Origin: Pseudomonas sp.
Lineage (GTDB): Bacteria > Pseudomonadota > Gammaproteobacteria > Pseudomonadales > Pseudomonadaceae
Assembly: GCF_030690725.1 (NCBI RefSeq)
Contig: NZ_JAUYGD010000004.1
Coordinates: 117,327-181,326, forward strand
DNA length: 64,000 nucleotides
Direction of reading: 5' to 3'
The position numbers and the translations under genes were made by a program. This document shows, in pieces, positions 59,376 to 64,000 of this stretch (position 1 is the stretch's first letter; the number at the start of each line of letters is the position of its first letter). The notes beneath the pieces are model-generated. The model made no database searches. It was given only the letters and a program-made list of their open reading frames with translations, and was not told the DNA's origin.

Positions 59376-59777
59376 ATGCGACGACTAAAACGCTATCTGC
59401 TGCTGGGGGTTGCACTGCTGGTCGGTTGCAGCACCCAGGGCGAGCGCAGCATTCAGGAGGTGGCCGGCAGTTGGTCGATCCGCCAATTCAATCAAAGCAG
59501 TTTTGCCTTGGGCAAGAGCAGCCATTACCGGGTCTATCACCGTGGTCAGCTGGTGCGCCTGACGCCGCCGCTGGTGCAGCGCGAAACCAGCGAGCTGCTG
59601 GCGGTCGGCCACTTCAATGCTGGGGTGTTTCCCTATCCGGACCTGATCGTCCTGGTGCATGACCGCTTTACCAATGCGCAAGGCTATGGCGATGCCAAGC
59701 TGCGGGCGTTTCAGCTGATCTCCAAGCAGGATCGGTTCGAGATCGTGCCGATCGAGATATCAGCGGCGGGTTTTTAG
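59376..59777 (+). CDS. Uncharacterised lipoprotein
   Basis: Basic N-terminus, hydrophobic core, lipobox LVGC; GGAGG RBS. Confidence 0.7.
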   Translation: MRRLKRYLLLGVALLVGCSTQGERSIQEVAGSWSIRQFNQSSFALGKSSHYRVYHRGQLVRLTPPLVQRETSELLAVGHFNAGVFPYPDLIVLVHDRFTNAQGYGDAKLRAFQLISKQDRFEIVPIEISAAGF

Positions 59778-60304
59778 TTGCGGCTGCTGGCCTGACTAAG
59801 CAACCCGGTCGCGATGGGGTTGGCTGCAGGTGTAAGTGGCTGGCTGGGTTTGTCCGGGAAATGCAGGCTCTCGCGGCGACCCTGACGGAGCAGGGTGACA
59901 TGCTGGCGCTGTACGCTCTCCAGAGTGACGCCTGGGGCGATGGTGGCACCGACCATAAAGCGCGCCGGGGGCAGGCCGGCCTGGCCAATAATGGCGCTGG
60001 AGCGGCTGCTTTGTGGATGGTTGAAGGCGGCCATCAAGGTCAGTTGCAAGGAGGTAGCCGGAGCCGGGCCGCCGCTGTCGAGTAGAGGGAGGCCGAACAG
60101 TCCCGCCAGTTGCTGCTGATCGATAACCGGCTGCACGGGGGCGTGCTGCACGGGCGCCAGGTTGATTGGGCTGTGCAGTAAGCGCCAGAACGCCGCGCCC
60201 TGATAGGCCAGGCTGAGGCTGCCAGCGAGCAGAAGCAGCAGGCACAGGCCCGTGATCAGATGCTCCGAGGCGACGGGCTGGGCTGGTTTATTGGGCTGCA
60301 GCAT
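59774..60304 (-). CDS. gspC: Type II secretion GspC/XcpP-like protein (short, HR domain only)
   Basis: N-terminal TM; LAGLFG, PATSLQLTL, SSAII, GVTLESV...VTLLRQGRRESLHFP. Confidence 0.8.
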   Translation of the reverse strand: MLQPNKPAQPVASEHLITGLCLLLLLAGSLSLAYQGAAFWRLLHSPINLAPVQHAPVQPVIDQQQLAGLFGLPLLDSGGPAPATSLQLTLMAAFNHPQSSRSSAIIGQAGLPPARFMVGATIAPGVTLESVQRQHVTLLRQGRRESLHFPDKPSQPLTPAANPIATGLLSQASSRN

Positions 60305-60316
60305 AAAAAATCCTTA

Positions 60317-60354
60317 ATGAAAAAGCCCATGACTGCTAAGGCAGCCATGGGCTT
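60317..60354 (-). terminator. Intrinsic terminator after the protease gene
   Basis: AAGCCCATGGCTGC-loop-GCAGTCATGGGCTT followed by TTT on the minus strand. Confidence 0.8.
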
Positions 60355-60370
60355 GGGTACTACTGGGTGT

Positions 60371-62203: not shown

Positions 62204-62881
62204 TCAGCCCTGGGTGGGCGGTGGCAGCGGGGCCAGTTCTTTATGGTCGTAGTGCAGGTGGTCATTGGGATCGGCGCGCAGTACCAGTTGGTTCTCATCG
62301 GTGATCACCGTCTTGCCCGTGGCGTTATCGATGATGATCGACAGGCTGCCGTCGAGCGTGGCGACGGTGATATGGGTCTCCAGCGCGCCCTTGACCAGGG
62401 TCATGCTTTCCACCTCGTCGCCATCGATCAGGCTGCCTTGCCATACGGCGCTGCCGGCGGTGTTGCGGGTTTCGCCGAGGCTGGCGCGAGTCGGGCTGCT
62501 GCGCCCCGGTAGTGCCAGGGAAACCACCTGACCGAGCGCCAGGTTGTTGAGTTGCTCAGGGTCGACCTGGGTCAGGTGCTGGGTAATGCCGTTGCTCTCG
62601 GTTTCCTGCAGTGAGCCGGCATCCCAGAGCGTGGCCTGCGCGGCGCTGCTGGTGGCCACGGGCGGTTTGGCCTGCAGGGTGGAGACGCTGCTGGCGCCTT
62701 GGCTGGCTGCTGGGCTGGCGGATGCGGCCGTGCTTGCGCTGGGCGCGGACGATTTGCTGTCGGGATTGTTATTCGATGCCGCTTGGCTTGGCTTTGGCTC
62801 AAGGTCAGCCGAGAGCACGACCCCCAGGACGCCGCCGACAATGGCGGTGGCGACTGCGGCTGTAATCCAGCGTTTTGACAT
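62204..62881 (-). CDS. Membrane-anchored pro-domain/chaperone-like protein (CpaB-like)
   Basis: N-terminal TM, Ser/Ala linker, beta-rich domain (VSLALPG...WQGSL...TLVKG...TVATLDG) ending DPNDHLHYDH; 36 bp upstream of the protease. Confidence 0.6.
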   Translation of the reverse strand: MSKRWITAAVATAIVGGVLGVVLSADLEPKPSQAASNNNPDSKSSAPSASTAASASPAASQGASSVSTLQAKPPVATSSAAQATLWDAGSLQETESNGITQHLTQVDPEQLNNLALGQVVSLALPGRSSPTRASLGETRNTAGSAVWQGSLIDGDEVESMTLVKGALETHITVATLDGSLSIIIDNATGKTVITDENQLVLRADPNDHLHYDHKELAPLPPPTQG

Positions 62882-63072
62882 GCGACTGCTCCATTAGTCT
62901 GGAAAGTTGAAGTCGCGCAGTCTAGGTAGAGCCTCTGTGGTTATTCGCTATGCAGTTCACAGGCAGAGGGTATGGGCAGGGCCAGCTTGTTTAATTTGAA
63001 CGTTGGTCTCATATCCAGGGTGTGCCACGTCTCGCTCGGAATGGGGCACAGTTCCACGCCGCTCGGCCATGC

Positions 63073-63095
63073 CGTTGCGGCGTGGTGCCGCAACG
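63073..63095 (-). terminator. Hairpin after gspD
   Basis: CGTTGCGGC-N5-GCCGCAACG perfect stem, no U-tract. Confidence 0.45.
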
Positions 63096-63104
63096 CCTGG
63101 TTGC

Positions 63105-64000
63105 TTACTCGGGCAGGGCGCTGGCGCCGCGTTTGGGCAGCTGTTCGGGCAGGGCGGCCAGGGCTTTAAGCGCGGTCTCGCGGCTCGGGTAACTGCCATA
63201 GAGCACGACGTAGCGGGTTTCCCCGTCCTGCTCGCGCTCGGCCAGGCGCAGCGGTTGTTTGGGGTGGCGCTCCAGCAGAGCCTGCATAAATTCGCGGTTG
63301 CTGCCCTCGACCAGCTGGATGGTGTGGCGGCGCGCTGCAACCTGGGGTTTGCTCTCGCCGCCACGACCATCGCCGAGGGTGGCGGGGTCGACAGGCTTGG
63401 GCGTCTCGATCAGGGTCTTGCTCGGTTTTGCCGGGATGGCTTTGGCCGGCTGGCGCAGGTCGGTCGCGGGTGCCTCAATGCCCTGGTCGAACAAGGCGTG
63501 GGCCTGCTGCGGCAGATGGTCGTAACCGTTGGCCTGGCCGAGCAGGCGCAGGTCACGGTATTTGCCCAGGCTCAGGTTGGCCAGGCCGACACCGTCACGC
63601 GCCACGGTGGGACGCAGGAACACCATCAGGTTGCGTTTCTGCCGGGCTTCGCGGGTTGAACGGAATAGCCGGCCGACGCCGGGAATATCGCCAAGCAGCG
63701 GCACCTTGCTCTCACTGCTGGTGATGTCGTCCTGAATCAGGCCGCCGAGCACGATCACCTGGCCGTCATCGGCCAACACAGTGCTCTTGATCGAGCGTTT
63801 GTTGGTGACCAGATCCACCGCCTGGGCATTCAGTCCGGTGCTCGGGGCGATGGAGGAGATTTCCTGCTCGATCACCAGGCGCAGGGTGGCGCCTTCATTG
63901 ATATGCGGGGTGACCTTGAGGGTCACGCCGATGTCCTTGCGTTCGATGGTGGTGAAGGGGTTGCTCGAGCCGGCGGCGTCGGTGGTGTAGGAGCCGGTCT
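63105..64000 (-). CDS. gspD: Type II secretion secretin GspD (5' part outside window) with C-terminal SPOR-like domain
   Basis: NPFTTIERKDIGVTLKVTPHIN, VIVLGGLI, KVPLLGDIPGVGRLFRS, NLMVFLRPTV; tail HTIQL...YVVLYGSYPSRETA. Confidence 0.93.
   Translation of the reverse strand, partial: TGSYTTDAAGSSNPFTTIERKDIGVTLKVTPHINEGATLRLVIEQEISSIAPSTGLNAQAVDLVTNKRSIKSTVLADDGQVIVLGGLIQDDITSSESKVPLLGDIPGVGRLFRSTREARQKRNLMVFLRPTVARDGVGLANLSLGKYRDLRLLGQANGYDHLPQQAHALFDQGIEAPATDLRQPAKAIPAKPSKTLIETPKPVDPATLGDGRGGESKPQVAARRHTIQLVEGSNREFMQALLERHPKQPLRLAEREQDGETRYVVLYGSYPSRETALKALAALPEQLPKRGASALPE

Follow-up and report, generated by a model that had tools for sequence, protein, structure and literature searches.

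A GspD/GspC pair enclosing bamI and mep72 in a Pseudomonas peli-group bacterium: a candidate cargo-linked accessory module of the type II secretion system

GspC and GspD are those components of a type II secretion system (T2SS) thought to choose its substrates, and a locus where their genes enclose those of a protease and its putative partner raises the question of whether the enclosed protein leaves the cell through a gate of its own. Such a locus lies at the end of the 64,000-nucleotide stretch of Pseudomonas DNA analysed here (hereafter, the window), and the initial annotation had suggested a dedicated secretion channel analogous to the XphA/XqhA pair. By combining profile searches, phylogenies, structural models and a survey of Pseudomonadaceae genomes, we arrive with moderate confidence at a related reading, in which this GspD and GspC form an accessory module of the XphA/XqhA kind that is linked to its cargo and would dock on a resident GspE-M platform.

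All four genes were found on the minus strand and exactly where the initial annotation had placed them, in the order gspD, bamI, mep72, hairpin and gspC, within a bacterium of the Pseudomonas peli group (Table 1). The usual C-D order is broken, with gspD coming first and gspC lying beyond the substrate genes; a gap of 2.8 kb holding bamI and mep72 separates the two, and no C-then-D adjacency was found. The search for gspE-M past position 64,000 retrieved none, the same being true of the 14 kb upstream and the 4 kb downstream of the cassette, and no complete contiguous T2SS operon (gspE-M with gspC and gspD) is present; the pair is consequently an orphan at this locus. The genes upstream of gspD are DUF3392, hemW, rdgB, metW and metX. 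A convergent lipoprotein of 133 aa (59376-59777) was considered as a pilotin and rejected, as it displayed no family match and no PDB match.

Table 1. Coordinates of the cassette features in the window, and the evidence for each.
Feature	Position	Strand	Evidence
gspD, 3' part (rest beyond window end)	63105..64000	-	TIGR02517 and Pfam
SPOR domain of GspD (residues 675-736)	63147..63332	-	Pfam SPOR, AF2, Foldseek
gspD-bamI spacer, 223 bp	62882..63104	-	sequence read
bamI	62204..62881	-	NCBIfam BamI
mep72	60371..62167	-	NCBIfam Mep72, Pfam
intrinsic-terminator-like hairpin, mep72 stop to gspC	60323..60354	-	hairpin scan, free energy, conservation
gspC, 176 aa	59774..60304	-	PF11356

The full gspD gene encodes 749 aa (window-equivalent 63105-65354; L001 4105-6354; G000:C1:180431-182680), with a signal peptide ending at ANA|S followed by N0, three Secretin_N, Secretin and SPOR domains according to Pfam, and scores 520 bits against TIGR02517 (cut-off 351). 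Its closeness to XqhA of P. aeruginosa extends over the full length (60% identity, 736 aligned residues, C-terminal extension included), the identity of the reference having been verified by its xphA-xqhA-ACP-x-M23 (LasA) gene context. In the GspD tree, the cassette secretins form a clade (support 96/94) that joins XqhA at 87/89, and both are split at 95/99 from the XcpQ clade, into which the main GspD of this same genome falls. For the secretin, what had been proposed as an analogy to XphA/XqhA is homology, given this identity and the shared clade.

By sequence and by modelled fold, the C-terminus of GspD is a SPOR domain, its binding to glycan being only predicted. Pfam PF05036 matches it with 32.7 bits (cut-off 21), the AF2 model displays a beta-alpha-beta-beta-alpha-beta fold with pLDDT above 90, and Foldseek returned the SPOR domain of DamX (2LFV) as best match, followed by those of DedD, CwlC and RlpA. 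A Pro/Ala-rich linker and a block conserved in the alignment (LIExPxPVDPAxLGDGRGGE) precede the domain. Immediately 3' of the gspD stop, the spacer holds a GC-rich hairpin and then a GGAG ribosome-binding site preceding bamI; this spacer is likely the site of a separate bamI-mep72 promoter, and a simple promoter scan found no sigma-70 consensus in it.

The two enclosed genes belong to described families. Mep72 scores 780 bits against its NCBIfam model (NF052434, cut-off 645) and shares 61% identity with the P. aeruginosa-type protein. Its Sec signal peptide is accompanied by a catalytic domain of the reprolysin type (Reprolysin_3), in which the zinc motif HEAGHNMGLRH lies at residue 164, and by a pair of CBM_4_9 stretches; the CpaA model also matches the catalytic domain (E 1.6e-12). 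It is a metzincin whose secretion in this bacterium is predicted from these features. In P. aeruginosa, bamI-mep72 constitutes an operon of its own, Mep72 is type II secreted and bound by BamI, and the reported effects of BamI are relief of toxicity and Mep72 binding, while the delta-xcpP-Z test carried out there does not tell the Xcp route from the XphA/XqhA route (PMC4334185).

BamI scores 253 bits against NF052435 (cut-off 180) and displays 53% identity to the P. aeruginosa protein. A low-complexity linker connects its N-terminal membrane anchor to a beta-rich domain of the CpaB type (residues about 78-205), and the protein ends in a tail, PLPPPxQG, which is invariant in the alignment. Sequence searches with BamI and Mep72 against the PDB gave nothing, and only the fold search was informative: with the AF2 model of the BamI domain (pLDDT above 90), the top six Foldseek matches were CpaB chains of 6O38 (E 6.6e-7, TM 0.66-0.74), followed by the prodomain of profragilysin. 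BamI hence combines the anchor, the CpaB fold and the neighbouring metzincin gene by which a CpaB-like chaperone is recognized. The designation of this gene as a chaperone fits the fold, but the protein is not new, being the described BamI, and a role as type II chaperone had earlier been suggested for the neighbour of Mep72 (PMC4713064). The same holds for the whole cassette, put forward as an undescribed protein system: each of its components falls in a described family (XqhA-type GspD, GspC, Mep72 and BamI/CpaB-like).

The placement of gspC behind a terminator was corroborated. The hairpin has a 14-bp stem and a T-run, and its free energy is -26.7 kcal/mol (z = -5.67 versus shuffles). Its conservation extends to 9 species, and 4 of its pairs have undergone compensatory changes. 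The AAGGA ribosome-binding site, which is likewise conserved, and the ATG of gspC follow within about 19 nt of it, too close for a separate gspC promoter to fit in between, so that gspC is probably transcribed by read-through of the hairpin; alternatively, a promoter inside the 3' end of mep72 might be its source. Either arrangement would yield a small amount of the adaptor whenever the cargo is made.

The product of gspC gave PF11356 (T2SSC) as its sole domain match (57 bits, cut-off 27), and is made up of a transmembrane (TM) segment and an HR domain alone, both a PDZ domain and a coiled-coil tail being absent. In BLAST it is closer to XcpP (E 6e-27) than to XphA (E 4e-15); the protein aligns to XcpP residues 36-168 with 43% identity, about 43 C-terminal residues of XcpP being absent, and to XphA with 41% identity over 100 aa. 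In the GspC tree, whose long branches gave no firm grouping with XphA, it forms a single clade with the GspCs of the cassettes in relatives (support 94/94), in parallel to the clade of the cassette secretins. The description of a short, PDZ-less gspC is accurate, yet the absence of PDZ is normal in Pseudomonas GspC, XcpP included, and the distinguishing trait is that this one is shorter still. An alternative assignment to the small HR-like proteins encoded after M66 proteases (L054, L055 and L044) was rejected, as the similarity is weak (E about 1e-5) and the signal peptide of those small proteins looks cleavable, whereas the cassette protein has the TM segment of a GspC and the strong match to XcpP given above.

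A non-canonical gene order together with a GspC truncated relative to XcpP could also mean that the locus is a rearranged, non-functional leftover of a T2SS cluster, and gspC has indeed been lost in two relatives (G343 and CAU 1711). We consider this highly improbable: the reading frames are intact, the order is kept across genera, the ribosome-binding site and the hairpin are conserved, and dN/dS amounts to 0.05-0.19 for gspD and gspC (0.13-0.19 for gspC), values by which the cassette was rejected as a pseudogene or relic. Across the four genes dN/dS ranges from 0.05 to 0.24, and all of them are under purifying selection. The D-BamI-Mep72-C order was recovered in seven species of the P. peli clade, in Ectopseudomonas alcaliphila and on one partial contig, and in 11 of the 401 sampled Pseudomonadaceae genomes, which rules out a strain-specific rearrangement. 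This conserved layout suggests, without proving it, that the cassette is a supplement to the main type II machine that is tied to its cargo.

In one relative (G325), the same D...C frame holds a different cargo, the order being D, an M66/TagA/Ricin protease, an HR-like protein and C; among more distant XqhA-type secretins, an M66 protease follows the gene, a pectate lyase precedes it, or LasA lies two genes on. Altogether, a hydrolase gene lies directly beside XqhA-type secretins in at least 5 arrangements. Furthermore, an XqhA-type secretin was present in 17 of 24 genomes with Mep72 versus 6 of 377 without it, counts that overstate the signal owing to the non-independence of related genomes. 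The bamI-mep72 and XqhA-type genes are unlinked in P. aeruginosa and in three other genera, and in genera g9 (2 of 34 genomes) and g12 (3 of 21) the genomes with Mep72 are exactly those with the XqhA-type secretin, in spite of the genes being unlinked.

Seven sampled genomes encode Mep72 and no XqhA-type secretin, one example being a P. fluvialis-like locus with the order hemW-DUF3392-bamI-mep72. The export of Mep72 cannot therefore strictly require such a secretin, and evidently an ordinary Xcp-type C-D pair can serve it. The dedicated channel of the initial annotation is thus a candidate, the evidence for it being synteny and co-occurrence. The seven genomes also count in favour of a different explanation, in which the XqhA-like GspD and the short GspC serve as a general-purpose, condition-specific stand-in for the main C-D pair, with many substrates and a use, for example, in surface or biofilm growth or in SPOR-guided placement; in that case, bamI-mep72 would lie next to them through shared regulation or a chance insertion near hemW, and not through cargo specificity. 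The XphA/XqhA pair of P. aeruginosa is said, after Michel and colleagues in 2007, to secrete most Xcp substrates, a breadth that would speak for a broad rather than a dedicated gate. Moreover, XphA/XqhA is described as a functional hybrid Xcp subunit regulated by the environment and not by quorum sensing (PMC6567927), and at four loci (L045, L046, L054 and L055) a complete T2SS has the XqhA-type protein as its sole or principal secretin. On the other hand, a general gate does not account readily for the recurrent hydrolase neighbours, for a D...C frame that stays constant while its cargo is swapped, for the strong co-distribution of Mep72 with XqhA-type secretins even where they are unlinked, or for a gspC that sits behind the terminator of the cargo. 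Weighing both sides, we regard the general-purpose explanation as possible, but rather unlikely. From gene order and co-distribution, we infer instead that the pair may be in dedicated use for Mep72 in this bacterium.

Whether the pair is an orphan in the genome as a whole depends on the resident machinery. The genome has two gspE-M sets, both on other contigs, and three C-D pairs, of which the main one lies on contig C56. Between the two sets GspE is 81% and GspL 48% identical, and GspF and GspG are 99% identical; the second set, at the start of contig C65, is followed by unrelated genes with no adjacent gspC-gspD, and C65 also carries the third C-D pair within a low-GC island. Since the second set has no C-D pair next to it, the cassette pair may not be functionally orphan here, and might represent the cognate C-D of that set, the genes of a complete second machine being scattered. 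The presence of two gspE-M sets is in line with this possibility, as is the fact that an XqhA-type secretin directly adjoins gspE in L030, L045 and L046. However, only one gspE exceeds the cut-off in G343, a close relative that keeps a 92%-identical XqhA-type secretin, which indicates that the secretin is an orphan in that lineage; the third C-D pair is an equally possible partner for the C65 set; and the near identity of GspF and GspG means that the platforms may be interchangeable. We therefore deem a split second T2SS improbable.

Under the favoured reading of an accessory, cargo-linked module, Mep72 would cross the inner membrane by Sec and would be kept folded and inactive at the membrane by BamI, whose invariant proline-rich tail is probably positioned near the active site of Mep72, in the manner of CpaB with CpaA; either this tail or the segment DPNDHLHYDH is predicted to reach the zinc site. 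The short GspC would bridge an Xcp-type GspE-M platform and the XqhA-like secretin through an HR-N0 contact, and the hybrid type II machine formed in this manner would expel Mep72, with the SPOR domain tying or targeting the secretin to peptidoglycan. A bolder generalization, offered tentatively and with more doubt than conviction, is that XqhA-type secretins (with SPOR) and minimal GspCs constitute portable, cargo-specific cassettes of gate and adaptor for secreted zinc metalloproteases, swapping their cargo (Mep72 with BamI, M66/TagA, LasA); that Mep72 is the native substrate of P. aeruginosa XphA/XqhA; and that terminator read-through sets the ratio of adaptor to cargo. The enclosing cassette, its cargo-swapped relative and the co-distribution reduce the matter to a simple question, i.e., does Mep72 need the orphan pair. 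To our knowledge, the natural role of XphA/XqhA in P. aeruginosa has been left undefined since 2007. In addition, the locus offers a compact two-gene specificity module for secretion engineering in harmless pseudomonads, and the fold model of BamI would add Pseudomonas to the bacteria with a membrane-tethered, prodomain-like chaperone of the CpaB type.

Among known systems, the closest is XphA/XqhA, which is reportedly the orphan GspC/GspD pair of P. aeruginosa (PA1867/PA1868) described by Michel, Durand and Filloux in 2007. This pair forms a hybrid machine with Xcp (Michel 2007, summarised in PMC6567927). The cassette resembles it in its secretin, which falls in the same clade and shares the long C-terminal extension, in a GspC restricted to TM and HR (176 versus 175 aa), in its location away from gspE-M, and in the proximity of a secreted Zn-protease gene, lasA lying two genes downstream in P. 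aeruginosa. It differs in that P. aeruginosa has the order C-D, whereas the cassette has D-cargo-C, with chaperone and protease in between and gspC behind a terminator; furthermore, the SPOR domain of the extension is visible to Pfam in the cassette GspD and absent from the precomputed matches of P. aeruginosa XqhA. The Mep72/BamI pair of P. aeruginosa (PA2783/PA2782; PMC4334185; PMC4222646) displays the same bamI-mep72 order and domain layout, and both cassette proteins exceed the equivalog cut-offs, but unlike the cassette it has no adjacent T2SS genes and lies 1.1 Mb from xphA-xqhA.

With CpaA/CpaB of Acinetobacter (PMC4713064; PDB 6O38), the cassette shares an N-terminally anchored chaperone, for which CpaB is the best fold match, and a partner that is a reprolysin-like metzincin with glycan-binding modules. 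In contrast to CpaA/CpaB, the chaperone gene comes first in the cassette, and no sequence similarity is detectable. We know of no CpaAB locus flanked by gspC or gspD. Substrate genes do lie beside T2SS clusters elsewhere, as StcE with etp on pO157, CbpE with Txc (strain PA7) and LapA with Hxc. In these systems, of which Txc and Hxc are mentioned in PMC6567927, cargo is likewise linked to secretion genes, and several relatives have M66/StcE-like proteases as their cargo; however, etp, Txc and Hxc are complete machines with the cargo at the end, whereas the cassette consists of the two specificity components with the cargo between them. Finally, type II secretins of other bacteria also have a function in peptidoglycan binding attached or associated, through the anchoring helpers GspB/OutB (PMC9239104) or through the SPOR domain predicted at the N-terminus of the T2SS secretin in Legionella (PMC6617341), while in the cassette the secretin itself carries SPOR as a C-terminal fusion that follows its core.

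The four cassette genes lie on the minus strand and are transcribed in the order gspD, bamI, mep72, gspC, bearing out the layout of secretin, chaperone, protease, hairpin and short gspC proposed in the initial annotation (see the table). The source genome (G000, with the window at G000:C1:117327-181326) is a 4.67-Mb draft of 60.9% GC and belongs to the P. peli group, judged by its Mep72, which shares 99% identity with the Pseudomonas sp. 1928-m protein and 97% with the P. peli one. GspD displays N0, three Secretin_N, Secretin and C-terminal SPOR domains, and Mep72 carries the motif HEAGHNMGLRH and two CBM_4_9 modules. 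The hairpin (-26.7 kcal/mol, z = -5.7) is kept across nine species and shows changes on both sides of the stem at four pairs; gspC begins within about 19 nt of it, with a ribosome-binding site (AAGGA) in between, and its expression would come from transcription that reads through the terminator of the cargo. GspC is 43% identical to XcpP, the GspC of the main P. aeruginosa T2SS (Xcp), across XcpP residues 36-168, and lacks the C-terminal 40-odd residues of XcpP. A 133-aa predicted lipoprotein (59376-59777, plus strand, lipobox LVGC), convergent with gspC and overlapping its stop by 4 bp, is retained next to the cassette by several species of the P. peli clade and had no match among families or PDB.

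Coordinates of the cassette and of the other type II secretion genes of the genome
Feature	Location	Strand	Description
gspD	63105 to past window end	-	full length 749 aa, from L001 (locus reaching past position 64000); signal peptide end ANA|S
gspD-bamI spacer	223 bp	-	hairpin after gspD stop; GGAG ahead of bamI
bamI	62204-62881	-	above NCBIfam BamI equivalog cut-off
mep72	60371-62167	-	above NCBIfam Mep72 equivalog cut-off
terminator-like hairpin	60323-60354	-	14-bp GC-rich stem and T-run
gspC	59774-60304	-	176 aa; T2SSC (HR) as sole domain match
third gspC-gspD pair	G000:C65:63590-66260 (L042 5593-8260)		gspC 246 aa, gspD 647 aa
two gspE-M sets	G000 contigs C56:1-2726, C65:1-2767, C19:1-4800, C55:136070-140285		

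The gspC/gspD pair occupies an orphan position: upstream of gspD, past position 64000, no gspE-M genes were found, and the genes there (DUF3392, hemW, rdgB, metW, metX) are ordinary housekeeping ones. The genome encodes three GspD and three GspC over the family cut-offs, but only two gspE-M sets. On contig C56, a canonical divergent gspC-gspD lies next to the gspE of the set, and the set at the start of contig C65 has no adjoining pair. The third pair, 60 kb further along C65 in an island of 44-50% GC with an adjoining DDE transposase, was probably acquired horizontally; its GspD is 39% identical to the window GspD. The two gspE-M sets share 98.8% identity in GspF, 99.3% in GspG, 81% in GspE and 48% in GspL, and assembly breaks fall exactly on the near-identical gspF/gspG stretch, which could reflect gene conversion or a recent partial duplication.

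The secretin belongs to the lineage of XqhA, in agreement with the likeness to the orphan XphA/XqhA pair of P. aeruginosa noted previously. A search with GspD residues 560-749 retrieved P0046 (776 aa, 1755 member sequences), on a contig ordered T2SSC (175 aa), GspD, acyl carrier protein, small ORF and M23 peptidase, which we take to be xphA-xqhA-PA1869-PA1870-lasA of P. aeruginosa PAO1; the copy in the P. aeruginosa-like genome G173 is 99% identical. The window GspD shares 60% identity with this protein across 736 residues, C-terminal extension included. In a maximum-likelihood tree (paired support values), it groups with P. peli, G343, G325 and E. alcaliphila (96/94), successively joined by CAU 1711 (99/98), G318 (100/99) and XqhA (87/89), while the C56 secretin of the same genome belongs to a different clade (95/99), that of XcpQ, the Xcp secretin. 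The C-terminal domain scores above the Pfam cut-off for SPOR, and its AF2 model (pLDDT above 90) adopts a predicted SPOR fold, best matched by those of DamX, DedD, CwlC and RlpA. Ahead of it, a conserved LIExPxPVDPAxLGDGRGGE block (window 63333-63620, GspD residues about 580-674) is common to the P. peli clade, P. aeruginosa XqhA and metagenomic relatives. We found no literature description of SPOR on XqhA; on the Legionella type II secretin a SPOR domain was predicted earlier (PMC6617341), there at the N-terminus and here at the C-terminus. Across Pseudomonadaceae, a weak match to the SPOR region also turned up once per genome, in a protein of about 500-560 aa (e.g., G173:C1:5721057-5721401) that is probably a DamX/ExeA-like SPOR protein encoded close to pilQ-aroK.

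A survey recovered the four-gene order from seven species of the P. peli clade and one partial contig, as well as from Ectopseudomonas alcaliphila, whose GspD is 80% and GspC 56% identical to those of the window. The insertion point is not quite fixed: the P. peli clade has the cassette following DUF3392, and E. alcaliphila has it one gene away, flanked by hemW and DUF3392. In P. fluvialis the C and D genes are absent and the locus reads hemW-DUF3392-bamI-mep72. The cassette is conserved under purifying selection, with dN/dS against four relatives of 0.05-0.08 for gspD and mep72, 0.17-0.24 for bamI and 0.13-0.19 for gspC. Among 401 Pseudomonadaceae genomes, Mep72 exceeded its cut-off in 24 and the XqhA-type extension gave strong, full-length matches in 23; 17 genomes had both, 7 Mep72 alone and 6 the secretin alone, and since related genomes are non-independent, this co-occurrence stands for perhaps four or five lineages and should not be read as 17 events. 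In 11 of the 17, all congeneric with the source genome, the two genes are adjacent; the other 6 (genera g9, g10 and g12) have them unlinked, with 1.1 Mb between them in G173. Of the 34 g9 genomes and the 21 g12 genomes, exactly those encoding Mep72 also encode the XqhA-type secretin.

In the six genomes with the secretin and no full-length Mep72, and in metagenomic contigs, secreted hydrolases recurrently adjoin this secretin lineage. G325 has gspF-gspE, then a divergent XqhA-type gspD, a 914-aa M66/TagA/Ricin protease, a 153-aa HR-like protein and a 158-aa gspC, followed by the main gspC (259 aa)-gspD. In G343 (one gspE over the cut-off), the secretin is 92% identical to the window GspD, with an M66 protease immediately upstream and gspC absent. 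G318 and the metagenomic contigs L054, L055 and L056 share gspC-gspD(SPOR)-M66 protease, followed in L054 and L055 by a small HR-like protein; G023 has a pectate lyase two genes upstream, and G028 showed no obvious cargo in the secretin neighbourhood. The GspCs of the cassette in the window, P. peli, E. alcaliphila and G325 form a single clade (94/94) that matches the GspD one; therefore, judging from these sequences, the two ends of the D...C frame appear to have been passed down together, with different cargo coming to lie between them. Directly downstream of M66/TagA proteases by XqhA-type secretins, proteins of about 150 aa (L054 12157-12603, L055 12227-12679, L044 about 10840-11299) with a signal-peptide-like N-terminus, two of the three with a GspC-HR-like segment, may constitute a cargo-side adaptor or chaperone family. 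In two distant relatives, T2SS gspC-gspD pairs adjoin genes (L030 920-3670, L046 11729-14476) whose products, about 915 aa long and of the animal haem peroxidase family, could be type II substrates.

BamI begins with a hydrophobic anchor, which a Pro/Ala/Ser linker joins to a conserved domain, and ends in an invariant PLPPPxQG tail. The domain, modelled confidently, has a predicted CpaB-like fold: CpaB chains from the Acinetobacter CpaA-CpaB chaperone-substrate complex (6O38) take all of the top six places in the PDB comparison (E 6.6e-7 to 2.6e-5, TM 0.66-0.74), with the profragilysin prodomain next. From its operon and TM segment, the Mep72 neighbour had already been named among the candidates for a membrane-bound type II chaperone (Harding et al., PMC4713064), and BamI binds Mep72 and relieves its toxicity (Passmore et al., PMC4334185); we propose that it acts as a tethered chaperone and trans-prodomain. 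Mep72 was gone from the secretome of a delta-xcpP-Z mutant (Passmore et al., PMC4334185), which also lacks the XcpR-Z that an XphA/XqhA hybrid would need, therefore the experiment is silent on the C-D pair used. Two divergent, back-to-back bamI-mep72 copies occur in Metapseudomonas otitidis (L033 3954-9842), and this duplication is also present in three g12 genomes. Apart from one table listing both operons among those lowered by LolCDE inhibition, together with pili, flagella and T6SS genes (PMC7685553), a weak link, we found no literature connecting XqhA with Mep72.

By analogy with XphA/XqhA and Xcp, the cassette pair would dock on a resident gspE-M platform and serve Mep72 preferentially; alternatively, in this genome it might serve the second set, at the start of C65, which has no C-D pair of its own. 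A strict form of the dedicated channel suggested initially is opposed by the seven genomes with Mep72 and no XqhA-type secretin, and by XphA/XqhA being reportedly broadly competent. Nor is this an undescribed protein system, as every component family has already been described; what is upheld is an accessory GspC/GspD with linked cargo, providing a concrete candidate substrate, Mep72, for the XphA/XqhA class of orphan gates.
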